Source: Parcubacteria group bacterium (lineage in GTDB: Bacteria; Patescibacteriota; Minisyncoccia; Phycocordibacterales; CALRHW01). From it: a stretch of DNA of 64,000 bases. A program made the position numbers and the translations under genes. A model generated the notes under the pieces. That model was not told the DNA's origin. It searched no databases and saw only the letters and a program-made list of their open reading frames with translations. Below, one piece after another: positions 3,221-23,923 of the stretch. The stretch spans positions 27,640-91,639 of the forward strand of contig JBCLGW010000001.1 of assembly GCA_039740835.1 (NCBI GenBank), in the 5' to 3' direction. How positions within the stretch are numbered: position 1 is the stretch's first letter; each line of letters opens with the position of its first letter.

Positions 3221-3221
3221 C

Positions 3222-4001
3222 ATGCGACCAAAAAAATCTCTCGGTCAAAACTTTCTGAAATCAAAACATGCATTGCGGGTTATCGTTGACTGCGCGCAGA
3301 TATCAGGGAGCGATGTCGTGCTTGAAGTCGGACCCGGCAAAGGCGCGCTCACAAAAGAGCTTTTAGTGAATGCGAAAAAAGTAATCGCTGTAGAAAAAGA
3401 TGACCTGCTCATACCGCTTTTGCAAGAAATGTTTGCGGTACAAATATCAGAAGGGAAGCTTGCACTAGTGCACGGCGACATAATGGAAATGTCGAGAGAA
3501 ACACTGGGGGTGGGTGGCGAATACAAACTCGTAGCAAATATTCCTTACTATATTACGGGCGTACTTTTGCGTACATTTTTGTCGGGCGCGCGACCGCCGA
3601 CGCGTATGGTGCTCATGTTGCAGAAAGAGGTCGCGCGCCGTATCGTAGCAAACGACAAAAAAGAAAGTTTGCTTTCTCTTTCAGTAAAAGCGTACGGCAC
3701 ACCGCGCTACATAGAAACGGTCAAAGCGATGTTTTTTTCACCAAAACCAAAAGTAGATTCTGCGATTTTGCTCATAGAAAATATTTCAAAAAAATTCTTT
3801 GATGGCTTTAGCGAAGAAAAGTTTTTCAAAGTGATAAAATCCGGCTTTGCTCATAAAAGAAAAATGCTAAAGAGAAACCTAGAAAGTAATTTCCAAAAAG
3901 AGGCAATAAAAAAAGCTTTTGAAATTTCAAAGCTTCCTCTTACTGTGCGTTCAGAAGACATCGCGCTTTCAGACTGGAAAAATCTGACCGAAAACCTATG
4001 A
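3222..4001 (+). CDS. rsmA: 16S rRNA (adenine1518/1519-N6)-dimethyltransferase, RsmA/KsgA
   Basis: N-terminus KKSLGQNFL and SAM-binding motif LEVGPGKGALT, characteristic of KsgA. Confidence 0.85.
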   Translation: MRPKKSLGQNFLKSKHALRVIVDCAQISGSDVVLEVGPGKGALTKELLVNAKKVIAVEKDDLLIPLLQEMFAVQISEGKLALVHGDIMEMSRETLGVGGEYKLVANIPYYITGVLLRTFLSGARPPTRMVLMLQKEVARRIVANDKKESLLSLSVKAYGTPRYIETVKAMFFSPKPKVDSAILLIENISKKFFDGFSEEKFFKVIKSGFAHKRKMLKRNLESNFQKEAIKKAFEISKLPLTVRSEDIALSDWKNLTENL

Positions 4002-4358
4002 TGTCCCGACCATTGTAATAATACCTTGGGCTGGTGGTCCTTGGACTGTACAATAACCATCATGCACGTTTGCACAACCCACTGGTGCACCTGTATGTAA
4101 ACCCAAAACCCAAGACCCAGTCCAGATACGATAATTCATAAAAAGCCGACTAAATTTAGGTGAGTACAGATACAACCCGCCAGACGGCGGAGAAACACTG
4201 ATCAAAAGACCGAGAGTACCACAAGTACATGCTTTTACAATAGTCATAACGCCTCCGAAAGAAGGTAATGATTGAGCATTGGCTTCTTTTGCAACAAAAA
4301 CACTAGGACCGATCAGGGTTGTTATCAAAAAAATAATTATAATAATTTTTCTTTTCAT
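3996..4358 (-). CDS. Small secreted Cys-containing hypothetical protein
   Basis: ORF with N-terminal signal peptide (MKRKIIIIIFLITTLIGPSVFVAKEANA) and several Cys. No recognisable family. Confidence 0.4.
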   Translation of the reverse strand: MKRKIIIIIFLITTLIGPSVFVAKEANAQSLPSFGGVMTIVKACTCGTLGLLISVSPPSGGLYLYSPKFSRLFMNYRIWTGSWVLGLHTGAPVGCANVHDGYCTVQGPPAQGIITMVGTS

Positions 4359-4359
4359 T

Positions 4360-5469
4360 TTACTTAAGGATAATTATAGCAGGATTATTTCTATCACTCA
4401 CACCGTTGGTGTTTACAACTGTTAGATAAATCTTCATTTCAAAATCTGCGGTAGTAAACATATCCGCAAAACCCTCTATGTAAGTCGGTGCATCAAGCCG
4501 AAATTTCAGTGTTTTTCCATCAGACGATGCTAGGTTTAAAATTTCACCAAAAGAAGTAAAAACCCTGTTTCCTGTCGGTGTAAAATTTTCTCCAGTCAAA
4601 GTAACTTCATCACCCAAAGACACTGTCTGTGGCAGGGCAGATGATATTTTTGGCGCAATAGCACCAGCGTTTGTCACAACAAAATACGCATTACTTTTAC
4701 TTTTTCCTTTTAAGTTGCCGACTTCTAAATCATAAACTCCGACCGACAAAGACGCGGGTATGGTCATTGAAATTTTGTTGGCATTTGTCGCTGGAATATT
4801 TGAGATAGCGTTGGAACCAAAATAAATAGTGTTGCTTGATAAATTAAAGCCCGTGCCAGAGAACTCAAGGGTGCTTCCTTGCACACCAACATTTGTCGAC
4901 AAAAAAGCTAGCTGTACTTTATCATTTTCACTTTCAGCAAAAATATTAAATTGTTCGATACCAGTAAAACCTGTCGCGGTTTGGGTAGCAAAAATGGGTG
5001 TGGTGGGAGATTGCACTATTTGATTTTGAGTATTTTGAGTTGTGTTATTTACGGTGTTTACTGTGTTTACTGTGTTTACTGTGTTTCCAGCGTTTCCCGT
5101 GTTGCTCACCAAAGAATTTATTTTCTGTCGTGTTGCGCTACCAAAAAATCCAGTGCCCGAAAATATTCCCAAAGGAGCCAAAACTTCGCCGGCATATTTA
5201 TTTTGAAACTTTACAACCGCAGAAAGTGTCGCTGGACCAAAATACTGCGTCTCATTTCCAGCAGAACCAGCGCCAGAAAACGCCACCACAGTATCAGGGT
5301 CTGTGTTTAGCTTTTTTTGTAATTCAAAAACCTCCACGCTAGAGTCGCCGAGCTTTAAGTTGCTGTTAAAAACAAACGCATTTGCAAAAATCGGCACGAC
5401 AAAAAACACAAAAAGTAAAAGTGGAAAAATAATCGAACCAGTTTTTTTCATATACACATTATATCGCAA
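4360..5469 (-). CDS. Secreted protein with a peptidoglycan-binding (PG_binding_1-like) domain, an NTV repeat and Ig/IPT-like repeats
   Basis: Signal peptide. Motif LKLGDSSVEVFELQKKLN...YFGPATLSAVVKFQ resembles PG_binding_1. An (NTV)n tract is encoded by a 9-bp tandem repeat. Confidence 0.5.
   Translation of the reverse strand: MRYNVYMKKTGSIIFPLLLFVFFVVPIFANAFVFNSNLKLGDSSVEVFELQKKLNTDPDTVVAFSGAGSAGNETQYFGPATLSAVVKFQNKYAGEVLAPLGIFSGTGFFGSATRQKINSLVSNTGNAGNTVNTVNTVNTVNNTTQNTQNQIVQSPTTPIFATQTATGFTGIEQFNIFAESENDKVQLAFLSTNVGVQGSTLEFSGTGFNLSSNTIYFGSNAISNIPATNANKISMTIPASLSVGVYDLEVGNLKGKSKSNAYFVVTNAGAIAPKISSALPQTVSLGDEVTLTGENFTPTGNRVFTSFGEILNLASSDGKTLKFRLDAPTYIEGFADMFTTADFEMKIYLTVVNTNGVSDRNNPAIIILK
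5041..5086. repeat. Tandem 9-bp repeat (GTGTTTACT, about 4 copies) inside a CDS
   Basis: Direct reading gives ACGGTGTTTACTGTGTTTACTGTGTTTACTGTGTTT. On the minus strand this encodes NTVNTVNTVN. Confidence 0.8.
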
Positions 5470-5525
5470 AAAAGCACTCTCACAATACGAGAAATCTGAT
5501 ATACTTATCTACATATTCTCAAACC

Positions 5526-6518
5526 ATGAAAATCCCATCAACAAAAATTATTCTGGTTTTGATTTCTTGCGTTGTTGCGGTAGCAATCATTTTTATAGGT
5601 ACAAAAACTTCAAAAAATGAGCCGGCCGTAGCTAGCCAAAACGAAACTATAGAGCCACGAGTGATGATAAGCACCTCCTTGCAGGGAACTTCAGAAATAG
5701 ACACTGACAGCGACGGACTCAAAGATTGGGAAGAAGTGCTCTGGGGTCTAGATTCCAAAAAAGCCGACACAGACGGCGATGGTATTGATGATAAAAAAGA
5801 AGTTGAACTAATACAGCTTAAAAAGGCGGATGGTGTTGTACCCACAGTATCTAGCACGACAAAAAAATCTACTGCCCCAGAAGGACCCCCCACCCTTACA
5901 GACCAACTTGCTAGACAAACATTTTCTAAATACATAAATTACAAACAAATGGGTGTGCCGATAACTAAAGAAATTACTCAGAAACTTGTGGAAGATGTCC
6001 TCGCAACAAACCTATTCAATCAAAACTTACCAAAATTTAACTCTGCGCACCTAAAAAATATTGTAGAAAGTGACGAAAAAAGCGCCTTTCACGACTACGG
6101 CAATAATTTGTGGGATATAATGGTAAAAAATACACCAAAAAATACGGTCTTGGAAAATGAATATTCTATATTTCAGAGAGCAATAGAAAAAGATGACGAG
6201 AGAGAACTAAAAAAACTAGACCCGATAATAACTGGTTACAGAAATACGGTTTTGGATATAATTTCAATGCCAGTCCCAAGAAATATGGTAGGAAAGCACC
6301 TAGAACTTATAAACTCCATGAACACACTTTTGGCATCCATAGAAGATATGCGGGTGTATTTCACAGATTCTGCGCGTGGTTTTGCGGTGCTATCATACTA
6401 TACAGACAAAGTTTCTGCACTTAAAAAAGCTTTGGTTGGTCTGGTGGATATTTTAAACAAAAATGGTGTGGAATATGTGGAGGGTGAGGGTGGATACACG
6501 CTAATGTATAGTATATAA
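5526..6518 (+). CDS. Membrane-anchored hypothetical protein with Asp-rich, calcium-binding-like repeats (thrombospondin-type-3-like)
   Basis: N-terminal transmembrane segment. The sequence DTDSDGLKDWEEV...DTDGDGIDDKKEVE follows a DxDxDG pattern. 330 aa. Confidence 0.4.
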   Translation: MKIPSTKIILVLISCVVAVAIIFIGTKTSKNEPAVASQNETIEPRVMISTSLQGTSEIDTDSDGLKDWEEVLWGLDSKKADTDGDGIDDKKEVELIQLKKADGVVPTVSSTTKKSTAPEGPPTLTDQLARQTFSKYINYKQMGVPITKEITQKLVEDVLATNLFNQNLPKFNSAHLKNIVESDEKSAFHDYGNNLWDIMVKNTPKNTVLENEYSIFQRAIEKDDERELKKLDPIITGYRNTVLDIISMPVPRNMVGKHLELINSMNTLLASIEDMRVYFTDSARGFAVLSYYTDKVSALKKALVGLVDILNKNGVEYVEGEGGYTLMYSI

Positions 6519-6536
6519 TTAAATCAAAATATCGCT

Positions 6537-8003
6537 GTGTTATTAAAATATTTTAAAAAATCTTTATTTACTGTTTTTCTTTCAATTGTTGTTTTTACCT
6601 TTTTTGTTCCAACAAAAGCTAGCGCGCAAATACCGATCGCTGTGCCAATAATGGAGGTGGGAACTCTCTTATTAACCACCATAGAGATGGCATATCAAAC
6701 AGCTCTAACGGGTTTGAGCACAGATGCAATAGCTGAGAACACTGCGATGCTCTCTGCAAAAGAAACGGGTGTAGGAATCGGCGCATTTGGAATACCTCAC
6801 AGCTCCGCAACAGTGGCGGCGACAAATTCGCTGACCCTCGACTCCATCGCTATCAAGATTATGAAAAATTTAATCTCATCTATCACAGAAGCAACTGTCA
6901 ACTGGATAAATACTGGTTTCGATGGCGGACCACAGTTTGTTACAGACCCAGCTTCTTTTTTCATAAACGTAGCGGATAGGGTGATCGGTGAGTTTATAGA
7001 GGATACTGCGGGTACGAAATCTGATTTAAGTTTTCTCTGTTCTCCTTTTCAAATCCGCTTCGCTCTACGTCTAAACTACTCAGCATCTTTTAAAAATAAA
7101 ATCAAATGTACATTGAGTGATGTCGTAGGAAACATAGAAAACTTCTATAATGATTTTAGTGCGAATGGCTGGACAGGATGGTTTAGTATGACTCAAAACA
7201 GTCAGAACAATACTTACGGAGCATTCATAGCTGCAGATATGGAGCTCAGTAAAAAGCTAGCGACCACTCTGGGAATAGAGGAAAATAAACAAAGCTGGGG
7301 TCAAGGATTTCTTTCGTGGCAAGATTGTCTTGATGTTCCCGCACCAGCGACAGGTGTTGAGTGTAAAAAGAAAGGACCAATAAAAACTCCGGGGAAGATC
7401 ATAAACAGCCAGCTAGAAGAAGTACTCGGCACAGACTTGCGCCAGCTAGAGCTTGCAGACGAGTTTGATGAAATTATCGGTGCTTTGGTACAGCAAGCGA
7501 TGAAACAAGTCATGGTGGGGTTTGGAGCTCTAACAGCTGGTCCGAAAACCCAAGCGACAAGTGAAATGAGTACAACAATAGAAACAATAAGAACAGCAGA
7601 AAAACTTGATGCTCCTGTAAAGGCTAATCTACGTAATGCGCAACTACAAGCACACCAAGTTTATACCAAAACAACACCATTCAGTTATGGTACAGTGGAT
7701 TTTTCTGCAACCGGTGGTGCTGCTGCCGCTTGTAGCAATGTGACTACTAGCACCCTGTTTGCTAACCCAATAATATTTAGTCATATCACCGCAGCTACAG
7801 TAGCCGGCGGGGGTACAAATGCTTGTAGTAGTATCGCTGTAACAGATGGTGGTAAGTGGGCTATTGCTGTTAATTTGAAAAGTGTCGCGAAATCTTTCTG
7901 GTGTGTAGACAGTACTGGAAGGGCACAAATTAGTGGTGTAGCAACATCCACCAACAGCCAAGCTTATGCTAACTCGGTCGTTGCTGGTAGTAAGTGTAAC
8001 TAA
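6537..8003 (+). CDS. Secreted hypothetical protein (488 aa) at the head of the T4SS-like cluster
   Basis: Signal peptide ending ...PTKASAQ, Thr/Ser-rich, with paired Cys near the C-terminus. No recognised family. Confidence 0.4.
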   Translation: MLLKYFKKSLFTVFLSIVVFTFFVPTKASAQIPIAVPIMEVGTLLLTTIEMAYQTALTGLSTDAIAENTAMLSAKETGVGIGAFGIPHSSATVAATNSLTLDSIAIKIMKNLISSITEATVNWINTGFDGGPQFVTDPASFFINVADRVIGEFIEDTAGTKSDLSFLCSPFQIRFALRLNYSASFKNKIKCTLSDVVGNIENFYNDFSANGWTGWFSMTQNSQNNTYGAFIAADMELSKKLATTLGIEENKQSWGQGFLSWQDCLDVPAPATGVECKKKGPIKTPGKIINSQLEEVLGTDLRQLELADEFDEIIGALVQQAMKQVMVGFGALTAGPKTQATSEMSTTIETIRTAEKLDAPVKANLRNAQLQAHQVYTKTTPFSYGTVDFSATGGAAAACSNVTTSTLFANPIIFSHITAATVAGGGTNACSSIAVTDGGKWAIAVNLKSVAKSFWCVDSTGRAQISGVATSTNSQAYANSVVAGSKCN

Positions 8004-8043
8004 TATAAAGTAAAAAAAAATGAAAAGAGCGGGAACATAAAAT

Positions 8044-10248
8044 ATGAAAAAGTTTTTTACTAAAAAATTATTCAGAAACATACTTATAGCGACTTTTGTG
8101 GTGGCAATGTTTTTGCCAATTACTGTAACTGCTCAAGGTGCTTTTGTTGAGGCTGTTGCTAATGCTACTGTTGGGCCTAATGTTGTGCTGGCGGCAAAGA
8201 TTATTGCTGGGATTGGCGGGGAGCTTTTTATGGCGAGAATACGAGCCGCTGTCAACGAGGGTGTAAACGTTCTTGTGGGGTGGCTTGGTAATCTACTACT
8301 AACAATTTCATCCTTTTTCCTTTGGCTTGCCGGACTTTTACTAACTGTTGTCCTGGACGAAACAATGATGAAAATGGGGACAAATATTGATGGCATGCGC
8401 TCAATAAATGTGGGTTGGGCTGCACTCAGAGATGTTGCAAACTTATTTTTTATTTTTATTTTACTTTATGTTGCTATAGGTAGTATTTTAAATATCAGTG
8501 GGGTACAGATTAAAAAAATGCTTGTAAATGTTGTTATTATAGCGCTTTTAATAAACTTCAGTATGTTTTTTACAAAAATGATAATAGACGCATCCAATAT
8601 CTTAACAATTAGTTTCTATAATGCGATTCAGAGCGAAACAAAAGATGGAATTTCTGGAGCAATTGTTCACAAAATGAAACTAACGGGAATATACAACCCC
8701 AGCTCTCAATGGGGAGTGGAACAAGGAGCAACTGCTACACTTGCGGCACAAACAAGGGCGAAAAACAACCCAGTAGACGAGACCATTAGAATACTTATTC
8801 TAAGTATTTTTGGCTCCGTTTTTATGTTTATAGCGGCATTTATATTTCTCGCATTCAGCGTAATGTTTATAGGAAGATTTGTAATACTAATATTTTTACT
8901 AATATTGTCTCCCGTGGCGTTTATCTCAATGGCTCTACCAGAAGATAAGTACTCAAAAAAGTGGTGGAATGCCTTGTTTGCACAGTGTATTTTTGCGCCG
9001 GCATGTATGGCTCTTTTGTGGGTCAGTATAAAAATGCTGGAGGGCATAAATTTTGCTCCCCAAGATTCAAGTTTAGCTGGTTTAAGTTCTGGAGACCCCA
9101 AAGCAGTTCTATTGGTTCTAAATTTTATCGTGATAATATCTATGCTTATTTTTACACTTGTCGTAGCAAAAGAATTTGGAGCATATGGTGCAAACAAGGG
9201 AATGAGCATGTTAAAAACTGCCGGAAATAAGGCGAGAGGGGTGGTTAGTGGGGCGGCTAAAAGAGGGGCGGGAATGGCTGCAAGAGGGGCATTGCGTGGT
9301 GTTGCGAGCGCAACGGGTCTTGACAAATTCCGAGATAGCACTAAAGCAAAAAGTAAGATCTGGCGCACTATTTTGACTCCAGTTAATGCTGTAATGAATG
9401 CAAAAATGCCAGACGGTCAATCGGTGGATTCTGTAAAAGAAAGAGAAGAAAAGTTGAATGCCAAACATTCAGATGCTGTACTAGAAGACAAAAAAGTCGC
9501 GGCAGAGGCAGAGAAGCTAGCAAATGATAAAAAAGCCACAAAAGACAAGGCGGCAGCAGAGAGTGAGATAGAGAACCTAAACAAAGAAATGGTGGGTGTG
9601 CTTGAAAAAAGTCCGGGAGGCGCGGGTAATATAAACACACTTCATTCTCTAAAAAAAGAACTTGAGGTTTTGGGAGAACAATACAACCAATCGACAAATG
9701 AGGGAGACAAAAAGGCAATAGTGGAGCAAATGAAAGCGAAGCGAGAAAAGATACAAGATACACAAAAGAGTGTTGACTCTCAGACAGATAAAATACCTAA
9801 AGCACAAGCAATTAAAGAGCGTCTTGATGCTGTAAAAGGTGAGGTCCGTGGTGCAGAAAAGACGATAGGAAAGGCTATTGATGAGTATTTAGCTGATGCT
9901 CTAAAAGCGGAGGCAGAAAAAATTGAAAGGGCTCCTAGAATATTGGATGGGGTAAGTAATTGGGCAAGTAAAAAGATAAAGCCAATGTTAGAAAAGCTCA
10001 AGATTGGTAGAAGTAGAACAAATAACGTTGGTGATGTTGTTTTTAACACTACGGGGTGGGTAAGGGGTGTGCTTAGGGACGCAATGGGACTATCTCAACA
10101 CAGAAACAATCTCGCCAAGAATCTGCGGAAGGCAGCAAAAAAACAGAGTTTGGAAGAACTGCTTAAAGAAACAAACAAACTCCAAAAGGAACGTGCGAAC
10201 GCAGAAAGCAAGCCTAAAGATTCTGGTGCTGGTAAACCAACAACATAA
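8044..10248 (+). CDS. VirB6/TrbL-like polytopic membrane protein with a long C-terminal coiled-coil tail
   Basis: Signal peptide, then a large loop, then at least five hydrophobic helices in the TrbL/VirB6 arrangement. The K/E-rich C-terminal coiled coil is about 350 aa. It lies next to the PrgI-like and VirB4 genes. Confidence 0.45.
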   Translation: MKKFFTKKLFRNILIATFVVAMFLPITVTAQGAFVEAVANATVGPNVVLAAKIIAGIGGELFMARIRAAVNEGVNVLVGWLGNLLLTISSFFLWLAGLLLTVVLDETMMKMGTNIDGMRSINVGWAALRDVANLFFIFILLYVAIGSILNISGVQIKKMLVNVVIIALLINFSMFFTKMIIDASNILTISFYNAIQSETKDGISGAIVHKMKLTGIYNPSSQWGVEQGATATLAAQTRAKNNPVDETIRILILSIFGSVFMFIAAFIFLAFSVMFIGRFVILIFLLILSPVAFISMALPEDKYSKKWWNALFAQCIFAPACMALLWVSIKMLEGINFAPQDSSLAGLSSGDPKAVLLVLNFIVIISMLIFTLVVAKEFGAYGANKGMSMLKTAGNKARGVVSGAAKRGAGMAARGALRGVASATGLDKFRDSTKAKSKIWRTILTPVNAVMNAKMPDGQSVDSVKEREEKLNAKHSDAVLEDKKVAAEAEKLANDKKATKDKAAAESEIENLNKEMVGVLEKSPGGAGNINTLHSLKKELEVLGEQYNQSTNEGDKKAIVEQMKAKREKIQDTQKSVDSQTDKIPKAQAIKERLDAVKGEVRGAEKTIGKAIDEYLADALKAEAEKIERAPRILDGVSNWASKKIKPMLEKLKIGRSRTNNVGDVVFNTTGWVRGVLRDAMGLSQHRNNLAKNLRKAAKKQSLEELLKETNKLQKERANAESKPKDSGAGKPTT

Positions 10249-10254
10249 ATAAAT

Positions 10255-10848
10255 ATGGACGAAACATTACAAAAAAACATAGCAGATCAGTGGGAGATAC
10301 TTCCAGATGACATCAAAGCTGTTTTACTTTCACCTGAATTAGAAACAAAACTTGATGTTGTTGCGGAAAAATATCAACTCGCGCCAGAGCAGGCAGTGTC
10401 TCTAAAAACAGAGGTTCAGCTTGTTTTGCTTGGCTTAGAACACATCATTGATTTTGCAAAGAATCTTACGGAAGAATTAAAAATCCAAAAAGAGCAGGCC
10501 CGCGCTATTTCTCAAGAAGTGGGCAGTCAAATATTTTTAGGTGTAAAAGAATCTCTAAAGACACTCGGTGAAATAATAGATATTTTGGATTCTGCGGTAG
10601 AAGATTATAAAAAAGAAATGGCTGAACAAAAAGAAACTCAAACCCCAACAGAACAAATAACCCCAGAAACTATTCTGCCCCCAAACCCGCCCGACATCAC
10701 TCTCATTCCAGAGCACACTGAGCTGGGCACAATAATAGACGAAAAGCTCAGTAAAATAGTGCGCACACCGACAGAAAAAGTGGTTATTTCCGAAAGACCA
10801 GCAAACACATACAAGGGAAATGACCCATATCGTGAACCAACAGAATAA
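10255..10848 (+). CDS. Acidic hypothetical protein within the T4SS-like cluster
   Basis: ORF tightly packed between the VirB6-like and PrgI-like genes. No transmembrane segment. Glu-rich. Confidence 0.35.
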   Translation: MDETLQKNIADQWEILPDDIKAVLLSPELETKLDVVAEKYQLAPEQAVSLKTEVQLVLLGLEHIIDFAKNLTEELKIQKEQARAISQEVGSQIFLGVKESLKTLGEIIDILDSAVEDYKKEMAEQKETQTPTEQITPETILPPNPPDITLIPEHTELGTIIDEKLSKIVRTPTEKVVISERPANTYKGNDPYREPTE

Positions 10849-10851
10849 ACT

Positions 10852-11277
10852 ATGAGATTTCAAGTGCCACAATTTACAGATGTTGAGGACAAAATTTTTG
10901 GTCCGCTGACATTCAAGCAGTTTGTATATCTAGCTGGAAGCGGTGGCCTTTGCGTGATTATTTACTTTTTGATACCGATAGGGTTTGTCGCATTTGCTTT
11001 GATGTTGCCTGTGGCTGCGTTTGGAGCAGCACTCGCTTTTTATAAAGTAAACGGCAAGTCTTTTATAAACATGGTGGAGGCATTTTTAAAATACTCAATA
11101 GCAGGAAAGCTCTACATCTGGAAACAAATTGAAAAAAAGCCGGTGGTGGGGTCTGCACCAAAAGAGCTTTCTAGCTCATTTTTACCAAAACTCTCGGGTA
11201 GTAAGCTAAAAGATATGACTTGGAACCTTGGCGTAACAGAGAGCATCAACCCCGTAACAAGAAATGATTTAAATTAA
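10852..11277 (+). CDS. PrgI-family (VirB3-like) T4SS membrane protein
   Basis: N-terminus VPQFTDVEDKIFGPLTFKQFVYLAGSGGL followed by two transmembrane helices. This is the PrgI (PF12666) pattern. It sits immediately upstream of VirB4, as in Gram-positive T4SS. Confidence 0.55.
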   Translation: MRFQVPQFTDVEDKIFGPLTFKQFVYLAGSGGLCVIIYFLIPIGFVAFALMLPVAAFGAALAFYKVNGKSFINMVEAFLKYSIAGKLYIWKQIEKKPVVGSAPKELSSSFLPKLSGSKLKDMTWNLGVTESINPVTRNDLN

Positions 11278-11304
11278 GAGAGAAATAAGATATAATTCTT
11301 TAAT

Positions 11305-11943
11305 ATGGCAACAAAAGCTCAAGCCACCCAAGAATTTGTTCCTTTGACTGATATCAAAGACGGCATAGTCACCCTAAAAGATGGCTCACTTCGAGCTGTG
11401 CTCATGGCTTCAAGCGTCAACTTTTCCCTAAAATCAGAAGACGAGCGTATCGCAATTCTTTATCAGTTTCAAGATTTTCTAAACTCGCTAGATTTTTCTG
11501 TGCAAATTTTTATCCAATCACGTCGTCTAGATATTCGCCCATATATCGCTCTACTAGAAGAGCGAGAGAAAAATCAGGTCAACGACCTCATGAAGATTCA
11601 GGTGCAAGAATACATTCAGTTTATAAAAAAGTTTACGGAGGATACAAACATAATGACAAAACATTTTTTTGTTGTCGTGCCGTATTCTCCAGCGACTCTA
11701 CAAGTAAAAAACCCCCTCGCAAATATTTTTGGAAAAAAGAAAAATTCCGAGGGGGAAAAGATTTCAATGCAAGAAAAGTTTGAAGAAAATCGCACACAAC
11801 TAGAGCAGAGACTTTCTGTGGTAGAGCAGGGGCTGGTGCGTAGTGGTGTGCGAATAGTACAGCTTGGCACAGAGGAAATAGTCGAGCTTTTCTACAAAAT
11901 ATTTAATCCGGGTGATGCAGAAAAACCTATTCAACTTCAATAA
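11305..11943 (+). CDS. VirB4/TraC/CagE-family N-terminal domain (first segment of a VirB4 split by an in-frame TAA)
   Basis: DGIVTLKDGSLRAVLMASSVNFSLKSEDERIAILYQFQDFLNSL-DFSVQIFIQSRR aligns with the conserved VirB4 N-terminus (A. tumefaciens VirB4: DHIVLLEDGSIMSIAHVSGLPFELEE...). It ends at TAA, with ATG three nucleotides later in the same frame. Confidence 0.55.
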   Translation: MATKAQATQEFVPLTDIKDGIVTLKDGSLRAVLMASSVNFSLKSEDERIAILYQFQDFLNSLDFSVQIFIQSRRLDIRPYIALLEEREKNQVNDLMKIQVQEYIQFIKKFTEDTNIMTKHFFVVVPYSPATLQVKNPLANIFGKKKNSEGEKISMQEKFEENRTQLEQRLSVVEQGLVRSGVRIVQLGTEEIVELFYKIFNPGDAEKPIQLQ

Positions 11944-11946
11944 CAT

Positions 11947-13761
11947 ATGAGCTTTTTAAACAAATTATTTGGAAATAGCAAAAACAAAGACGAGCTTGTC
12001 GGCATGCTTCCGCAAGAGATTTACAAAGCACAAACTCTTGAATTAAGAGATGTTATTGCGCCGAGTGCTTTGAAAATTGGGCCGAGGGGGCTCAACTTGG
12101 GGGATAAAATAGTGCGTACATTTTTTGTCATATCATATCCGCGATTTTTGGGTGAGAGCTGGTTTGCGCCGATAATAAATCTAGACCGAGTTTTTGATGT
12201 TTCTATTTTCATACACCCGATAGATACCGTAAAAGTTTTGCGACAATTCCAAAAAAAGGTCGCTGAAGTACAAAGCCAAATCCATGACCGTGAAGAAAGA
12301 GGAATGGTGCGTGACCCAATGCTAGATACTGCGTATCAAGACCTAGAAAACCTGCGCGACAATCTACAGCAAGCCCAAGAAAAGCTTTTTGATGTTGGAC
12401 TTTATATTTCAATATATGGAGAGAGCGATGCTGAGCTTGATAAAATAGAATCTGAAATAAAATCAATTCTTGAATCAAAGCTTGTGTATGTAAAACCCGC
12501 ACTGTTTCAACAAGAGCAAGGATACAAAAGCGTGCTACCCATCGGCACAGACTTGCTTGCTGTGCATTCAAAGCTAAACTCTTCTCCGCTTTCAAGTCTT
12601 TTTCCATTTATATCTTTTGACCTTACATCAGACAAGGGGATTCTTTATGGTATAAATCGTCACAACTCAAGTTTGGTACTTTTTGATAGATTTTCTCTTG
12701 AAAATTACAACTCAATCACTTTCGCAAAATCTGGTTCTGGAAAATCATACGCCACAAAACTAGAAATACTTCGCACACTGATGTTTGAAACAGAGGTGAT
12801 AGTCATTGACCCAGAACGAGAGTACGAGTACATGGCGGAGGCCGTCGGTGGAAGATATTTTAAAATATCTTTAAACTCAGAGCATCATATCAACCCTTTT
12901 GACTTACCGCCACCAACCGAGGGAGAGTCCTCTGCCAACATCTTGAGGAGTAACATCATAAATCTAGTGGGGCTTTTTAGACTTATGCTTGGGGGGATTT
13001 CTGCTGAGGAAGACGCTATCGTAGACCGCGCAATCACTGAAACATATGCATTAAAAGACATCACCTCCGAGTCTGATTTTACAAACATTGACCCGCCACT
13101 AATGTCAGACTTTGAGCTCGTACTCTCTGGAATGGAGGGGGGTGAGTCACTAGCACAGCGTCTCACAAAATATACAAAAGGTACTTGGGCTGGATTTATA
13201 AACAGACCGACAAATATAGATATAAACAAAAAGTTTATCGTTTTTTCTTTGCGCGATATGGAAGACGAGCTCAAACCGATAGCGATGTATATCGTAATGC
13301 ATTACATTTGGGGAGCAATACGCCGAGAACTCAAAAAGCGTCTACTCGTCATTGACGAGGCTTGGTGGATGATGAAATCAGACGACACAGCGTCTTTTCT
13401 ACTTTCGCTTGCAAAACGTGGACGAAAATATTATCTCGGTCTAGCAACCATTACCCAAGACGTGGACGACTTTCTCAAATCTCCGTACGGTCTACCTATC
13501 ATCACCAACTCATCTATTCAGATTTTACTCAAACAGTCACCAACATCTATAGACAAACTTCAACAAACCTTCAACCTTACCGACGAAGAAAAATATTTAC
13601 TATTGGAGTCTGGATTAGGAGAAGGAATATTCTTTGCCGGACTAAAGCATGTTGCGATAAAAATTATTGCTTCTTATACCGAAGACCAAATCATCACCTC
13701 AGATCCGTCTCAGATTTTATCTATCCAACGAGCGAAAAAAGAATTGGAGGGTGCGAAATAA
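11947..13761 (+). CDS. VirB4/TraC-family T4SS ATPase (second segment, carrying the ATPase domain)
   Basis: Walker A motif AKSGSGKSYAT and Walker B LLVIDEAWWMM, which is the VirB4 DEAW signature. Also contains the second N-terminal VirB4 subdomain. 604 aa. Confidence 0.75.
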   Translation: MSFLNKLFGNSKNKDELVGMLPQEIYKAQTLELRDVIAPSALKIGPRGLNLGDKIVRTFFVISYPRFLGESWFAPIINLDRVFDVSIFIHPIDTVKVLRQFQKKVAEVQSQIHDREERGMVRDPMLDTAYQDLENLRDNLQQAQEKLFDVGLYISIYGESDAELDKIESEIKSILESKLVYVKPALFQQEQGYKSVLPIGTDLLAVHSKLNSSPLSSLFPFISFDLTSDKGILYGINRHNSSLVLFDRFSLENYNSITFAKSGSGKSYATKLEILRTLMFETEVIVIDPEREYEYMAEAVGGRYFKISLNSEHHINPFDLPPPTEGESSANILRSNIINLVGLFRLMLGGISAEEDAIVDRAITETYALKDITSESDFTNIDPPLMSDFELVLSGMEGGESLAQRLTKYTKGTWAGFINRPTNIDINKKFIVFSLRDMEDELKPIAMYIVMHYIWGAIRRELKKRLLVIDEAWWMMKSDDTASFLLSLAKRGRKYYLGLATITQDVDDFLKSPYGLPIITNSSIQILLKQSPTSIDKLQQTFNLTDEEKYLLLESGLGEGIFFAGLKHVAIKIIASYTEDQIITSDPSQILSIQRAKKELEGAK

Positions 13762-13767
13762 AAAATT

Positions 13768-14280
13768 ATGCAAAAAATTCCGAAAACAACTGCTGTATTG
13801 ATGGTCTTGTTGGCTGTGTCCGTGGATGTTTTGGGGTTTTTAATAGGACTTCTTCACTTTATTCCTGTTTTGGGCAATATTATCGCTGCTGTTGTTATTT
13901 GGATTATGTCTCTTATTGCTGTGTTTGTTTTTTATATTTGGTTAAAAATGAAAAATGTTAGTTTTGTAAGTGCAAAAAGAGTTTTGAGTTTTTTTGGTAG
14001 TTTTTTTGGAGAGATGATACCAGTAATAGACGCCTTCCCACTGTGGACAACAGGAATAGCCCTTACAATAGGGTCTGTTTGGATGGAGGAGGCCCTAGAG
14101 CAAATAACGGGAATGAAAGTAAGTATAAATGCAATGGCTTCTGGTGGTGTTAAGAATAAGGCAGGAGCTGATGCTGGAACACAAAGACTTGGCGAACCAA
14201 GCCTTGAAAGGGCAGGAATAGACGAAAAAACAGTGCGTTCGGCAGACGCTGTGCAAAGCAAAATTCCTCCAACTGCATAA
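13768..14280 (+). CDS. Hypothetical multi-pass membrane protein within the T4SS-like cluster
   Basis: Three or four hydrophobic helices at the N-terminus. 170 aa. Confidence 0.4.
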   Translation: MQKIPKTTAVLMVLLAVSVDVLGFLIGLLHFIPVLGNIIAAVVIWIMSLIAVFVFYIWLKMKNVSFVSAKRVLSFFGSFFGEMIPVIDAFPLWTTGIALTIGSVWMEEALEQITGMKVSINAMASGGVKNKAGADAGTQRLGEPSLERAGIDEKTVRSADAVQSKIPPTA

Positions 14281-14286
14281 AACCTA

Positions 14287-15339
14287 TTGAAGAAAGTGTT
14301 TGGTGTGCTAAAATTAAAGTGTAATTTCCATATGTTGCATTTATCTAAAAAAATTATTCTAAATACACTCTTTGCCTTTTTCTTTTTGGGTAGTACAGTC
14401 GCGCTAGCACAAACACCACAGACAATGGGGGGGTTATCAACATTTCCAAAATATCCCAGGCCAAACGAGCTCGTGACTGTCCACCTAAACGACTACTCTA
14501 TAAACCTAAACGCAACGGAGGTCACTTGGTCACTAGACGGCAAAATACAGAAAAAAGGAATCGGTGAAAAACAATTTCAATTTACAGCTGGAGCTATTGG
14601 TAAAAAATCGGTCGTAAAAGCGTCAACAAATACTTACACCCTAACCCTCAACATTAATCCTGTCGGACTAGATATTTTCTGGCAGACACAGACCTACACA
14701 CCGCCATTTTACAAAGGTAAGGCATTGTTTTCATATCAAAGCGCCGTTGATTTTGTCGCGCTTCCGGTTTTCCTAAATTCAAGTGGTGTCCTGATAGATC
14801 CAAAAACTCTCATTTACACTTGGTCAAAAAATAATGCGGTGGCAGGCAATCTTTCTGGATACGGCAAAAACAGCATATCTTTAGTGGGTGGTGTATTAGC
14901 AAAGCCAATGACCATTGGCGTGAAAGTATCATCTATAGACGACACCCTAGAATCAGAAACGGAAATCTCTCTCACAGCAAATTCTCCACAAACAATATTG
15001 TACGAAAATCATCCACTATATGGCATTACCTATAATAAATCCTTACCGTATCAACTTAGTTTGGATGAAAAAGAAATTACTCTATCTGTCGCACCGTACT
15101 TTTTTGATGTGAATAGAAAAGACAAACCGACAATTTCTTATGTTTGGAAAATGAACGGAAAAGAAATACAAAATCTGGAAAAACCATTTTCACTAGTACT
15201 CAGAAAACCCGAGGGTGGGGGAGCTGGATCAGCTATACTTTCTTTGCTAATCACTCAGACAGAAAAAATGTTTCAGTTTGCCAACAGCTCCATTTCTATA
15301 TTTTTTAAGTCCGAAGAGGAAACACAAACAAACATATGA
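14287..15339 (+). CDS. Secreted hypothetical protein with Ig-like repeats within the T4SS-like cluster
   Basis: Signal peptide (..FFFLGSTVALAQ). No recognised family. The start may instead be the internal Met at 14332. Confidence 0.4.
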   Translation: MKKVFGVLKLKCNFHMLHLSKKIILNTLFAFFFLGSTVALAQTPQTMGGLSTFPKYPRPNELVTVHLNDYSINLNATEVTWSLDGKIQKKGIGEKQFQFTAGAIGKKSVVKASTNTYTLTLNINPVGLDIFWQTQTYTPPFYKGKALFSYQSAVDFVALPVFLNSSGVLIDPKTLIYTWSKNNAVAGNLSGYGKNSISLVGGVLAKPMTIGVKVSSIDDTLESETEISLTANSPQTILYENHPLYGITYNKSLPYQLSLDEKEITLSVAPYFFDVNRKDKPTISYVWKMNGKEIQNLEKPFSLVLRKPEGGGAGSAILSLLITQTEKMFQFANSSISIFFKSEEETQTNI

Positions 15340-15764
15340 TAAAAAGGTTTAGAAAAAATTTTGGATTTGTTTTTTTACTTCTGGCGTTTTCTGCTGTGTT
15401 TTTTGGTGGTGTAAATGTAAAAGTATCTACAGCTGAACATAACTATGTGCCTCTAGCTCCAATAACTGGGGTAGTAGAGGGCAGAAACGTCACCCTAAAC
15501 ACCTACCTACCTGCAATGTTTAAATTTTTGATCGGAGTGGCGGCTGTGCTTGCTGTTATTATGATCACTATCGGTGGTATTCAATATATGTCGACAGACG
15601 CTATATTCGAAAAAAGTGAGGGAAAGGAGCGCATAAGACGGGCTCTTGGCGGACTTTTTCTGGCTCTTGTTGCTTGGCTTGTACTACAAACAATAAACCC
15701 CAAACTACTGAATACCAATCTTAATATGCAAAATATGGACGCGGGAACAACCCAAACACCTTAA
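15336..15764 (+). CDS. TrbC/VirB2-type T4SS pilin-like protein
   Basis: Long signal peptide followed by two hydrophobic helices (FLIGVAAVLAVIMITIGGIQYM ... LGGLFLALVAWLVLQTINP). Size is 142 aa. The start overlaps the previous stop by 4 nt. Confidence 0.45.
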   Translation: MIKRFRKNFGFVFLLLAFSAVFFGGVNVKVSTAEHNYVPLAPITGVVEGRNVTLNTYLPAMFKFLIGVAAVLAVIMITIGGIQYMSTDAIFEKSEGKERIRRALGGLFLALVAWLVLQTINPKLLNTNLNMQNMDAGTTQTP

Positions 15765-15773
15765 TCTTACAAA

Positions 15774-17018
15774 ATGTTAAAAAAAATAATCACAATACTT
15801 TTCATACTTATAGTCCTCATTGCTGGCGTTTTTGCTTTTTTGTATTTCACACAAAAAGATAGCGGTAGTGGGGGTAGAGGAATAAGTGTACGGGATTTTT
15901 TCCCTTTTGGACAAGAGTCGAGTACTCCAGCCACAACACCGAGTCAAGAAACAGAAAATAGAGTGCCCGTTGAAACAGCAAAAACACCGACAGTACCTCC
16001 AGATTTACGACAAATATATGCATACCCAGTATCGGGGGCTGGTGCGTTTTCTAGTACAAGTACTACTGTGGTGCGTTTTATAGACAAAGCTACCGGCAAC
16101 CTATACGAAGCAGAGACAGATTTAGATATTGTTACTAGAATTTCAAACACAACAATACCAAAAGTTTATAGTGCAATATTTTCAGACAAAAATTCTGTTG
16201 TACTAAGGTACGCACAAGATGACACAGACCTCATAGAAACCGTTTATGGAAAAGTTGCTACAAGTACTGCGACCAGCACAGCGGGTTCTGTTGTTGAACT
16301 AAAAACCGTATACCTTGACCCAAACATAAAAGAGCTTGTTTTGTCAGATAAAAACGACCGCATTCTTTCTATCACACAATCTGGCACTGGCTCAATCGGC
16401 ACACTTTCAAAACCAGACGGCACAACAAAAACCCAACTTTTTACATCACCGATACGCGAGTGGGTACCACAGTGGCTAAAAACAAACACAGTCACCCTCA
16501 CAACAAAAGCTAGTACAGAGGTCGCTGGATTTATGTATTCAGTGAATACAACAAACGGTGTGATGCAACCAATACTTTCAAACATCTTTGGGCTAACAAC
16601 ACTCACAAACAACATCGCCTCAACAACACTTTTCACATACAGCACCACAGACGGGATTTTCGCATTACAAACATACGATTGGAATAAAAAAGTCACCACA
16701 CAATTTCCACTCTCACCAACTTTTGTAGATAAATGTGTATGGAGTAAAAAAAATGCGGACCTAGTTTACTGCGCGGTGCCACATACCATGCCAAAGGGGG
16801 ATTATCCTGACGCATGGTACAAAGGCCTTGTGTCTTTCTCAGACGACATCTGGCGTGTAAATGTATCCACCGGCAACAAAGAGCTTGTCGCCGAGCTAAA
16901 AACGATATCGGGCAGAGACCTAGATGTCATAAACCCATCTCTAGACGGGGCAGAAAATTACTTTGTATTCACAAACAAAACAGACCTTACCCTTTGGAGT
17001 TATAAATTAAAAAACTAG
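15774..17018 (+). CDS. Membrane-anchored hypothetical protein, possibly a beta-propeller-like periplasmic domain
   Basis: N-terminal transmembrane segment, Pro/Thr-rich linker, then repeated beta-strand-rich segments. Last gene of the cluster. Converges on yidC. Confidence 0.4.
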   Translation: MLKKIITILFILIVLIAGVFAFLYFTQKDSGSGGRGISVRDFFPFGQESSTPATTPSQETENRVPVETAKTPTVPPDLRQIYAYPVSGAGAFSSTSTTVVRFIDKATGNLYEAETDLDIVTRISNTTIPKVYSAIFSDKNSVVLRYAQDDTDLIETVYGKVATSTATSTAGSVVELKTVYLDPNIKELVLSDKNDRILSITQSGTGSIGTLSKPDGTTKTQLFTSPIREWVPQWLKTNTVTLTTKASTEVAGFMYSVNTTNGVMQPILSNIFGLTTLTNNIASTTLFTYSTTDGIFALQTYDWNKKVTTQFPLSPTFVDKCVWSKKNADLVYCAVPHTMPKGDYPDAWYKGLVSFSDDIWRVNVSTGNKELVAELKTISGRDLDVINPSLDGAENYFVFTNKTDLTLWSYKLKN

Positions 17019-17746
17019 TTTTTATTGTATTTTTTTCGCAAAAATAGTTCTTGACCGATAGCAAAAAGATTGCTTGTAATCCAGTATAAAGAGATGGCTG
17101 TAGAAATACTGTAGGCGAAAACAACAGACAAAACAGGGAAGATGTATTTCATTTGAATACTCATACTTCTAGCGAGATCGTGTTTGAAAGAGTCGGATGC
17201 ACTAGCGCCTTCTTTTTTAGCCTGTGCCTTTGGGGTAATAAATTTCATCTGAAAATAAGTTGTTACACCAACCAAAATAGCTAGTGGTATGTTCTTTTGG
17301 GAAATATCCAAAAAACCAAGAAAAAACATGTTTATCGTCTCTGGTGCGTGCACAAAACCATACAAAATGTCAGCAGTAACTTTTGGTAGACCTGACTGCC
17401 AAAAAAGTCTGTACAAAGCAAAAATTATTGGCAGCTGTATAAGAATGAGTAGTATGCTTAAAAACGGCTGAACTTTTTTTTCTTTATACAAAGCAAACGT
17501 TTTTCGCGCCTGCTCCTGCTTGTCGTCTTTGTATTTTTCTTTTATGCGGTCTATGTCTGGCTGAATTTCCTTCATCTTTATCTGTGTTATCACAGATTTT
17601 TTTGAAAGAGGAAAAAGAACAAGCTTTACTAAAACAGTGAGCAAAATCACCAACATTCCAGCATCTGCCCAAGGAAACGTGTTTATTAAAAAAATAAAAC
17701 CGTTGTAAAGCGGGTGATAGATGAGCGTATTGTATATTGATAACAT
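17015..17746 (-). CDS. yidC: Membrane protein insertase YidC/Oxa1, short form
   Basis: Multi-pass membrane protein with the conserved YidC core (..FPLSKKS..PFLSILLILIQLPIIFALYRLF..). Sits in the canonical position next to rnpA and rpmH. Confidence 0.8.
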   Translation of the reverse strand: MLSIYNTLIYHPLYNGFIFLINTFPWADAGMLVILLTVLVKLVLFPLSKKSVITQIKMKEIQPDIDRIKEKYKDDKQEQARKTFALYKEKKVQPFLSILLILIQLPIIFALYRLFWQSGLPKVTADILYGFVHAPETINMFFLGFLDISQKNIPLAILVGVTTYFQMKFITPKAQAKKEGASASDSFKHDLARSMSIQMKYIFPVLSVVFAYSISTAISLYWITSNLFAIGQELFLRKKYNKN

Positions 17747-17782
17747 CAGATTATTGTAGCTTATTGAGAGGACTATTTCAAA

Positions 17783-18112
17783 CTATATTATTTGGGCTTT
17801 TTTCATCAAACCCACGATTTCTTCTTTTTGTTTTTCAAAAGATAATGTCAGAGCTCCTTTTTTTGCCGAAAAAACGGCTTTGGCTGGTTTTTTTATATCA
17901 CTCAAATGTTCTCGGATTAAAGAGTATACTCTTCGGCGGATTCTGTTTCTATCTACTGCATTTTGGGCTACTTTTTTTGAAACAAGCACGGCATAAGAGT
18001 CTGTATTTGAGGGTAGAGCTCTAAGGGTAAAATAGGTTGAGTGGTACAAAGACCCTTGTAGTAGAATCGGTTTAAAAGAATCTTTTGAAATTCTTTTATG
18101 CTTTGGCAACAT
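17783..18112 (-). CDS. rnpA: Ribonuclease P protein component
   Basis: Basic protein with RNase P motif KKVAQNAVDRNRIRRRVYSLIRE. Located between rpmH and yidC. Confidence 0.7.
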   Translation of the reverse strand: MLPKHKRISKDSFKPILLQGSLYHSTYFTLRALPSNTDSYAVLVSKKVAQNAVDRNRIRRRVYSLIREHLSDIKKPAKAVFSAKKGALTLSFEKQKEEIVGLMKKAQII

Positions 18113-18121
18113 AAAATATGG

Positions 18122-18256
18122 CTATACAGAGAGCTTTGTTCGGCCTTTTCGTCGGCGTCGAGTGATGACCTTTTTACCCCCAGCTGTTCTAGACCGCACT
18201 AGAAAACCGTGAGATCTTGCTCGTTTTCGTTTTTTTGGTTGGTATGTTTGAGACAT
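18122..18256 (-). CDS. rpmH: 50S ribosomal protein L34
   Basis: Manual translation gives [44 protein letters not shown] (44 aa), which is canonical L34. It was missed by the ORF track because it is under 60 aa. Confidence 0.8.
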
Positions 18257-18412
18257 ATAGGGGGATTATATATGAGTAATCTGATTATTTCAAGGTTTTT
18301 GGTGCTATTAGACTTATTCACAGTATATACACAGAGTATCAACATAATTAGGTATTTACCGCAAGTATAAAACAACTCATCATCATATATAATAAACCTT
18401 AAGAAATTTAAA

Positions 18413-19774: not shown

Positions 19775-20004
19775 CCTTTTTAGTGCTGTGTATATGATGT
19801 GAATAAAGTGCAATAGATGTGGATAAGATTGGGGTGTTTTAAAAAAGAGATTACTTATAAACAAACCGCCAAAAATAATCAACACCTTTTTAAACTTAAA
19901 CCCATAAAAAACGTTGCAAAATATAGTTAAATAAAGTTATCCAGTTATCAACACCCCTAGTATTAATAATAAATTTATATATAGATATATATTAAATACT
20001 GCTT
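19775..20004. promoter_or_regulatory. Putative oriC: DnaA boxes plus an AT-rich unwinding element between dnaA and dnaN
   Basis: Perfect DnaA box TGTGGATAA at 19818-19826. Near-consensus boxes TTATCCAGT at 19935-19943 and TTATCAACA at 19944-19952. An AT-rich stretch lies at 19958-19995. An additional box-like TTATTCACA sits upstream of dnaA near 18313. Confidence 0.6.
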
Positions 20005-23898: not shown

Positions 23899-23923
23899 TT
23901 TATCATATTGGGGGCTACATTAT

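Follow-up and report, generated by a model that had tools for sequence, protein, structure and literature searches.

Type IV secretion systems (T4SSs) of Patescibacteria were described in a 2025 review as a distinct newcomer in the T4SS superfamily (PMC12857230). In a survey of 3,035 Patescibacteria genomes, Quinonero-Coronel et al. (2025) reported TrsD, PrgI, VirB6 and VirB2 pilins in these systems, with no relaxase and with the type IV coupling protein (T4CP) encoded at a distance; the 5,713 T4CP homologues found in 2,918 genomes lie mostly far from virB4, relaxases occur in only 103 of the 3,035 genomes, and the T4SS of Paceibacteria is located near dnaA, dnaN, ksgA, rnpA and rpmH (PMC12102498). 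In Southlakia, the T4SS encoded by SEML1_0006-0019, which includes neither a coupling protein nor a relaxase, is essential for epibiotic growth on the host (Wang et al. 2023, PMC10633639), and a distant T4CP homologue is not essential (PMC12102498). Few machines are known to be indispensable for epibiotic life in this very large and mostly uncultured part of bacterial diversity, and the patescibacterial T4SS is one of them. Here we describe a T4SS-like gene cluster in a 64-kb stretch of contig JBCLGW010000001.1 from a Parcubacteria group bacterium; this stretch, referred to as the window, is the DNA that was inspected from the source genome. We consider it likely that the cluster is a vertically inherited chromosomal T4SS of the Patescibacteria clade in the Paceibacteria arrangement, derived from the monoderm MPF_FATA type, and that it is non-conjugative and serves episymbiosis.

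Gene order and chromosomal setting

The VirB4 sequence of the window was scanned against one genome per species, and at least 594 relatives were found. Among these, the best 80 (loci L001-L080) have VirB4 sequences 78-91% identical to that of the window, and the 42 with complete 10-kb flanks constitute the full-length subset. All 80 are candidate phyla radiation (CPR) metagenome-assembled genomes with Paceibacterota, Parcubacteria, Zambryskibacteria or Taylorbacteria labels, some carrying a generic "Saccharibacteria" label, which is consistent with a VirB4 that belongs to the Patescibacteria clade. The core order g488-virB6-prgI-trsD-virB4-g350-pilin-g414-yidC-dnaA (designations as in Table 1) is kept in every full-length locus except two, so that the comparison of gene order in CPR relatives, put forward with the original prediction as a check, came out in its favor. 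One of the two exceptions has g350 upstream of virB6, and in the other the best prgI match is on the opposite strand. The genes virB6, prgI, trsD, virB4, g350, pilin, g414, yidC and dnaA were each found in 42 of 42 full-length loci, and g488 and dnaN in 41. Where the flanks reach, the block is flanked by ksgA (39/42) and pbp (35/42), the usual order starting after ksgA. Because the core genes and their order are kept in nearly all full-length loci, the arrangement is far beyond chance.

The 11 plus-strand genes between 5526 and 17018 are spaced by -4 to 51 nt, and this tight spacing indicates that they constitute one operon. The block had originally been drawn from 3996, but the two minus-strand open reading frames (ORFs) at 3996-4358 and 4360-5469 are present in only 5 and 21 of the 80 related loci, respectively, and are therefore part of the neighborhood rather than of the conserved apparatus. 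The 369-residue product of the second has a weak peptidoglycan-binding domain (PG_binding_1, 20 bits versus a cut-off of 23). The other predicted ORFs are present at the coordinates first given for them, except that 11305-13761 is not a single ORF. Identical proteins are encoded in assembly GCA_039740795.1. A scan of 3000-20200 for promoters and terminators gave counts no higher than in shuffled sequence, and searches with family hidden Markov models found no paralogue of the pilin, g350, g414, g488 or VirB6 elsewhere in the window.

Table 1. Genes of the cluster and its neighborhood in window coordinates
Gene or product	Coordinates	Strand	Features
Two divergently transcribed secreted proteins, 120 and 369 residues	3996-5469	-	Variable neighborhood
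g330	5526-6518	+	N-terminal anchor, acidic DxDxDG calcium-binding-type motif, helical C-terminal part; first operon gene
g488	6537-8003	+	Secreted; conserved N-terminal domain of ~330 residues
Extended VirB6/TrbL-like polytopic membrane protein, 734 residues	8044-10248	+	Lys/Glu-rich hydrophilic C-terminal tail
g197	10255-10848	+	Soluble, predicted cytoplasmic, helical; C-terminal DPYRE(P)
PrgI/VirB3-like small membrane protein	10852-11277	+	PF12666
TrsD-like protein, detached VirB4 N-terminal domain, 212 residues	11305-11943	+	NCBIfam alignments
VirB4 ATPase, 604 residues	11947-13761	+	C-terminal two-thirds of canonical VirB4; NCBIfam CD1110 family
g170, small membrane protein	13768-14280	+	Two hydrophobic segments; position conserved, sequence fast-evolving
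g350	14332-15339	+	N-terminal membrane helix and three tandem Ig-like beta-sandwich domains
VirB2-type T4SS pilin	15336-15764	+	PF18895; signal peptide and two-helix hairpin
g414	15774-17018	+	Membrane anchor, Ser/Thr/Pro-rich linker, probable TolB/PD40-like beta-propeller; last operon gene, convergent with yidC
yidC	17015-17746	-	Pfam
rnpA	17783-18112	-	RnpA translation
rpmH	18122-18256	-	L34 translation
dnaA	18413-19774	+	Pfam
dnaN	20005-21108	+	Pfam

The cluster had been placed directly beside yidC and oriC. The genes yidC, rnpA, rpmH, dnaA and dnaN are confirmed, and oriC can reasonably be positioned next to the cluster from the gene synteny and from three DnaA-box-like 9-mers (at 19798, 19818 and 19945) in the AT-rich, 230-bp spacer between dnaA and dnaN (GC 0.245-0.25 at 19800-20100). 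The operon reads toward yidC and dnaA, and this orientation is kept in all 42 full-length relatives. If oriC is at dnaA, the operon would be transcribed head-on to the leftward replication fork, an orientation that sits oddly with the published rationale of gene dosage and high expression.

Divided VirB4 and the other core subunits

The original prediction read 11305-13761 as one VirB4 gene. Its assignment to the VirB4 ATPases is borne out, but the region comprises two genes, as it is interrupted by an in-frame TAA at 11941-11943 that is followed by an ATG at 11947. The product of the downstream gene scores 367.6 bits with the NCBIfam CD1110 VirB4 family (NF045971; curated cut-off 325), matches Pfam P-loop_TraG (4.5e-27), and aligns in BLASTP with residues 228-772 of PrgJ from pCF10 (E = 7e-43); its Walker A (AKSGSGKS, residue 260) and Walker B (LLVIDE, residue 466) motifs are intact. 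The upstream, TrsD-like product aligns with the N termini of VirB4 families, including positions 100-252 of the VirB4_plasma profile (E = 2.7e-11) and positions 13-199 of the 201 in TrsD/TraD NF041427, and has a precomputed Pfam match to PF26593 (TraC-like). Jointly the two proteins span the CD1110 profile, the TrsD-like protein covering positions 3-137 and VirB4 positions 182-733.

The in-frame stop at 11941-11943 might be taken as the mark of a pseudogene and the cluster as a decaying, non-functional remnant. We reject this reading as extremely improbable. The trsD and virB4 genes are separate ORFs in 77 of 77 relatives and lie in different frames in 62 of these; the split is therefore ancestral in this group, and the stop inside "VirB4" results neither from a pseudogene or recent nonsense mutation nor from a sequencing error. 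The intact Walker motifs and the median identities across relatives, 64% for the TrsD-like protein and 82% for VirB4, also argue against decay, as does the occurrence of separate TrsD proteins in pGO1-type systems and as the commonest T4SS component in Patescibacteria (PMC12102498). The median identity of VirB4 exceeds those of DnaA (63%), DnaN (53%) and YidC (49%) across the relatives, a contrast that is inflated by the selection of the loci for VirB4 similarity.

Two other subunits are above the curated cut-offs of their families. PrgI, present in 42 of 42 loci, matches PF12666 with 47.3 bits (cut-off 27), and the pilin matches PF18895 (T4SS_pilin) with 32.2 bits (cut-off 26.6), both as predicted, so that VirB4 is not an isolated ATPase accompanied by proteins of unrelated families. 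The pilin has hydrophobic segments at residues 10-28, 64-82 and 103-121, the first 4 nt of its gene are shared with the end of g350, and a single copy is present in the window. Among 56 pilin orthologues, 47 match T4SS_pilin and two match TrbC/VirB2.

The assignment of 8044-10248 to the VirB6/TrbL-like proteins stands through its homologues. The best match of the window protein is the NCBIfam Mbov_0396 ICE membrane protein (E = 4.4e-8; 32.9 bits versus a cut-off of 70). Five homologues with 30-36% identity (E values of 1e-10 to 1e-54), namely P0137, P0140, P0210, P0211 and P0236, pass the gathering score of Pfam TrbL (26.4-32.4 bits versus 25.9) over nearly the whole profile, and on this evidence we accept the protein as an extended VirB6. 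A TrbL match at E of 0.01 or below was found for 4 of 46 positional orthologues. The protein, which is present in 42 of 42 loci, has its seven hydrophobic segments between residues 13 and 365, and the ~350 residues after them form a hydrophilic tail. An hhalign comparison of the VirB6 profile with PrgH of pCF10 was not significant (probability 5%), the single-sequence template being too weak. Taken together, the profile searches and the synteny support the VirB6-like protein, PrgI/VirB3, VirB4 and VirB2-like pilin as the minimal core of a Gram-positive/CPR-style T4SS that had been proposed. The extended VirB6, PrgI/VirB3 and the divided VirB4 motor constitute an inner-membrane translocon set, which the operon combines with the pilin and with lineage-specific envelope proteins.

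In the relatives the pilin is frequently longer than in the window, where it is a short form that has no C-terminal extension. The ORF is extended C-terminally by at least 100 residues in 51 of 61 relatives (for example L007:12286-13131, L018:12922-13770, L006:13215-14198 and L036:13882-15306, equivalent to 15336-15764 of the window), and the extensions are polymorphic, since BLAST sorts them into at least 27 clusters that are unrelated to one another. An H-x(3-8)-D ... HxH signature is seen in the two largest clusters (11 and 10 members), one of which has a profile that resembles the N-domain of Sonic hedgehog (LAS zinc-hydrolase fold) with an E value of about 0.002, and the extended ORF of L036 has a tandem pilin-pilin-SLT organization. 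Such C-terminal fusions go unmentioned in the 2025 survey (PMC12102498). The polymorphic C-terminal domains of the pilin, and those of the g488 (ORF 6537) homologues described below, may be new side observations.

Missing transfer genes and accompanying proteins

No VirD4, TraG or relaxase domain was detected when window ORFs, including all of at least 280 residues, were scanned against Pfam and two ORFs that had no Pfam match were checked by eye. When 13 T4SS proteins of pCF10 were compared by tblastn with the window and with the 80 related loci (each +/-10 kb), only PrgJ/VirB4 gave matches; nothing was found for PcfC (VirD4), PcfG (relaxase), PrgK (VirB1) or PrgL (VirB8). The original observation that no coupling ATPase or relaxase is visible was thus reproduced. 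None of the cluster ORFs has a Pfam or NCBIfam match to VirB7, VirB9, VirB10, VirB5 or VirB11. The following features expected of a Patescibacteria-clade T4SS are present in the window: (i) a CD1110-type VirB4 with an adjacent TrsD, (ii) PrgI/VirB3, a VirB6/TrbL-type protein and a VirB2-like pilin, (iii) no relaxase or T4CP nearby, and (iv) a chromosomal location near dnaA, dnaN, ksgA, rnpA and rpmH. The T4CP, relaxase, VirB8-like and VirB1-like components of conjugative monoderm T4SSs are missing from the window, as is the outer-membrane core of the Gram-negative VirB/D4 (MPF_T) system, which argues that the cluster is T4SS-like but not a conjugation module.

A conjugation module, or a remnant of an integrative and conjugative element (ICE), could still move DNA if its coupling protein and relaxase acted in trans from elsewhere in the genome. 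The type of VirB4, CD1110/MPF_FATA, is a conjugative one, Patescibacteria genomes commonly have T4CP homologues, often encoded far from virB4 (PMC12102498), and only 64 kb was inspected. We nevertheless regard this possibility as very unlikely. The cluster occupies the same chromosomal site in 42 of 42 full-length relatives, relaxases are rare in Patescibacteria genomes and the distant T4CP of Southlakia is not essential (PMC12102498), and monoderm conjugation systems do not typically have a VirB2 pilin (PMC12857230). A mobile element was rejected on account of this fixed site and of the surroundings of the cluster, as no integrase was seen among the window ORFs scanned, no tRNA gene is closer than 33.8 kb, and there is no compositional break (GC 0.399 in the cluster versus 0.412 and 0.401 in the flanks).

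Seven accompanying secreted or membrane proteins with no recognizable family had been counted in the original prediction. The product of 4360, found in 21 of 80 loci, is not part of the core, and g197 has no hydrophobic segment; two of the remaining proteins resemble known folds, whereas g488 and g197 have no match. The first, g330, is present in 28 of 42 full-length loci and has one hydrophobic segment (residues 8-26); its NCBI-annotated start is at 5559 (319 residues). It has weak matches to TSP3_bac and CglD, and a comparison of its profile with the PDB finds calcium-binding motifs only.

The second protein, g488, was found in 41 of 42 loci and has 154 homologues, in none of which does the conserved part match Pfam. 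The N-terminal ~60 residues of two relatives match DUF4141 just under the cut-off (29.7 versus 30). The C termini in relatives (homologues P0001-P0120) vary and include Ig-like, F5/8 type C (discoidin), fn3 and InlB B-repeat domains, which suggests that g488 may be an exposed binding protein; a VirB5-like role for it is only an idea. A Foldseek search of the PDB with a poor AlphaFold2 model gave nothing below E = 4, and the comparison of its profile with the PDB gave no meaningful match.

The g197 protein has no hydrophobic 19-mer (maximum Kyte-Doolittle value 1.21) and is therefore probably cytoplasmic. The slot between virB6 and prgI is filled in 56 of 60 loci by an ORF of ~227 residues, which has no hydrophobic segment in 52 of the 56. 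No PDB or Pfam match was obtained for g197. In its C-terminal DPYRE(P) motif, Asp190, Tyr192, Arg193 and Glu194 are invariant in 33 sequences, and the motif could serve as a docking peptide. Between virB4 and g350 the window has g170, whose hydrophobic segments span residues 4-22 and 39-57; this slot is filled in 50 of 67 loci, and 48 of these 50 ORFs have hydrophobic segments.

The longest ORF for g350 begins at 14287, the start first assigned to it, but the invariant Met16 corresponds to the real start at 14332. The predicted structure of g350 is a confident model of three tandem Ig-like sandwiches. For this reason its identification as VirB8/TcpC, proteins of similar size with an N-terminal transmembrane helix, was rejected. 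VirB8-, VirB5- or VirB1-like folds, for which a search had been suggested with the original prediction, were found in none of the proteins tested. When the g350 and g414 profiles were compared with PrgL by hhalign, no significant match resulted, the single-sequence template being too weak. The last protein, g414, is present in 42 of 42 loci, and its profile matches four TolB entries in the PDB in the same region with E values of 0.04-0.5. A few orthologues match PD40, DPPIV_N or DUF5050, and these weak but consistent signals make a beta-propeller of the TolB/PD40 type probable.

The rest of the window contains housekeeping and type IV pilus genes. The latter lie at 27956-29653 (minus strand) and 45186-46142 (plus strand) and encode a PilB-like T2SSE ATPase, which has an MshEN domain, and PilM. 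The source genome thus combines type IV pili with a T4SS, as other CPR bacteria are reported to do. At 23831-25187 (plus strand), the gene for a class Ib aminoacyl-tRNA synthetase of the Trp/Tyr type is divided between two overlapping ORFs that differ in frame. The division coincides exactly with nine consecutive G residues (24466-24474), which are unusual for a genome of 39% GC; either the homopolymer was sequenced wrongly or the site is slippery or phase-variable. A secreted protein of 554 residues encoded by 47828-49492 (minus strand) has no Pfam match at 1e-5, and by eye its C terminus looks like a calcium-binding repeat of the dockerin type (DxNGxVDxxD ... DxNRDGxVN). In Southlakia, the essential envelope proteins include some with dockerin domains (PMC10633639).

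Proposed function and comparison with known systems

From established T4SS biology, the TrsD-like protein and VirB4 would be docked on PrgI/VirB3 and VirB6 at the membrane, and the VirB4 motor would supply the energy to extract the VirB2-type pilin and polymerize it, giving a pilus or conduit that crosses the monoderm envelope. The anchored Ig-like protein (g350) and the anchored propeller (g414) could act as a scaffold that spans or organizes the cell wall, and g488 could be the exposed, adhesin-like part. Such an apparatus would not engage in relaxase-dependent conjugation and would instead mediate host contact and the transfer of proteins or host-derived macromolecules, as has been proposed for Saccharibacteria. 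A surface organelle for host interaction, as envisaged here, draws on published work on other CPR lineages.

Several points weigh against a non-conjugative apparatus of this description. Sequence by itself is silent on function. The window VirB6-like protein has no Pfam TrbL match and is below every curated family cut-off, and the AlphaFold2 model of g488, built from a 115-sequence alignment, is poor (pLDDT 57.5). No VirB1-like hydrolase domain was found in the operon with Pfam, NCBIfam or the PrgK search, although relatives carry hydrolase-like domains fused to the pilin, and no VirB8-like component was identified in the window, g350 having been the best candidate by size. The envelope-spanning part of the model, for which neither a VirB8-like nor a VirB1-like component was identified, is speculative. 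GC skew has no sign change at dnaA in the window and in this way does not confirm oriC. Since T4CP homologues are common in Patescibacteria and mostly distant from virB4, the genome may contain a gene for a VirD4-like T4CP outside the 64 kb.

A further possibility concerns the direction of transport. The archaeal Ced DNA importer works with neither a relaxase nor a coupling protein, and by analogy the VirB4-driven conduit could be an uptake machine for host nucleic acids or cytoplasmic material. The scanned window contains no relaxase or T4CP, and VirB4 has a weak similarity to CedB. Patescibacteria generally lack nucleotide biosynthesis (PMC10633639), and a Minisyncoccota strain in culture acquires RNA from its host and forms tubes that penetrate the host envelope and reach into the host, possibly T4SS pili (bioRxiv 10.64898/2026.06.21.733656). 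However, the match of VirB4 to CedB amounts to only 30.6 bits versus a cut-off of 700, and the direction of transport cannot be read from sequence. RNA import has, to our knowledge, been demonstrated for no bacterial T4SS. In the preprint on the Minisyncoccota strain, the authors themselves call the mechanism unresolved, and an uptake machine appears unlikely to us.

In a related and similarly doubtful reading, the Paceibacteria apparatus would be a feeding conduit that breaches the host envelope, in which the pilin and g488 are polymorphic scaffolds and the TrsD/VirB4 motor draws in host RNA and other material. The swappable C-terminal modules of most relatives (LAS/hedgehog-type peptidase-like, SLT, Ig-like and discoidin) would then cut or bind the host wall, and the window pilin, having no such module, would be a minimal variant.

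The vertically inherited, non-conjugative Patescibacteria-clade T4SS that we favor can be compared with five described systems. The archaeal Ced importer likewise has a VirB4-family ATPase and no relaxase or T4CP, which makes it a possible functional analogue for import; it differs in view of the low CedB score, and CedA-type partners were not searched for. In the Mycoplasma ICE, Mbov_0396, a VirB6-like membrane protein, is the best NCBIfam match of the VirB6-like window protein (E = 4.4e-8) and its VirB4 partner Mbov_0397 that of the TrsD-like N-domain (E = 2.7e-11), but the scores are far under the equivalog cut-offs and the window has no ICE context. The cluster resembles the MPF_FATA conjugation systems of Enterococcus pCF10 (Prg/Pcf) and Staphylococcus pGO1/pSK41 (Trs) in its VirB4, which is similar to PrgJ, in its PrgI family protein and in its VirB6-type polytopic protein, and it shares with pGO1 a separate TrsD protein that precedes the VirB4 homologue. 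In contrast to these systems, it has no match to PcfC/VirD4, the PcfG relaxase, the PrgK hydrolase or the VirB8-like PrgL, it is chromosomal and syntenic rather than part of a mobile element, and it includes a VirB2-type pilin, which monoderm conjugation systems do not have.

The T4SS of Southlakia epibionticum ML1 is also an origin-proximal chromosomal cluster, as judged from its locus tags, with Gram-positive-like subunits and pilins and with no coupling protein or relaxase in the cluster. It differs in that Southlakia belongs to the class Saccharimonadia and has an array of six divergent pilins as well as peptidase and lysozyme genes downstream of virB4. For the Southlakia system, essentiality was demonstrated by experiment.

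The closest correspondence is with the Paceibacteria T4SS of the 2025 survey (PMC12102498), which has the same TrsD-VirB4 adjacency, PrgI, VirB6 and pilin, no relaxase or nearby T4CP, and the same origin-region genes. Nothing essential differs, although the window has a single short pilin and no pilin array, and the VirB1 that the survey reports in association with virB4 in Paceibacteria was not detected in the operon. The conserved partners g488, the protein with three Ig-like domains and the probable propeller are uncharacterized in the survey. The system and its layout were already published in 2023-2025 (PMC10633639, PMC12102498, PMC12857230), so that our main conclusions are not new and open no new question. 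The comparison of 80 loci yields a conserved 10-gene core that includes these three uncharacterized envelope proteins, evidence for the ancestral TrsD/VirB4 split, and a confident model of three Ig-like domains for one of the partners. The window is thus a further example of the Paceibacteria arrangement, and a clean and complete one.

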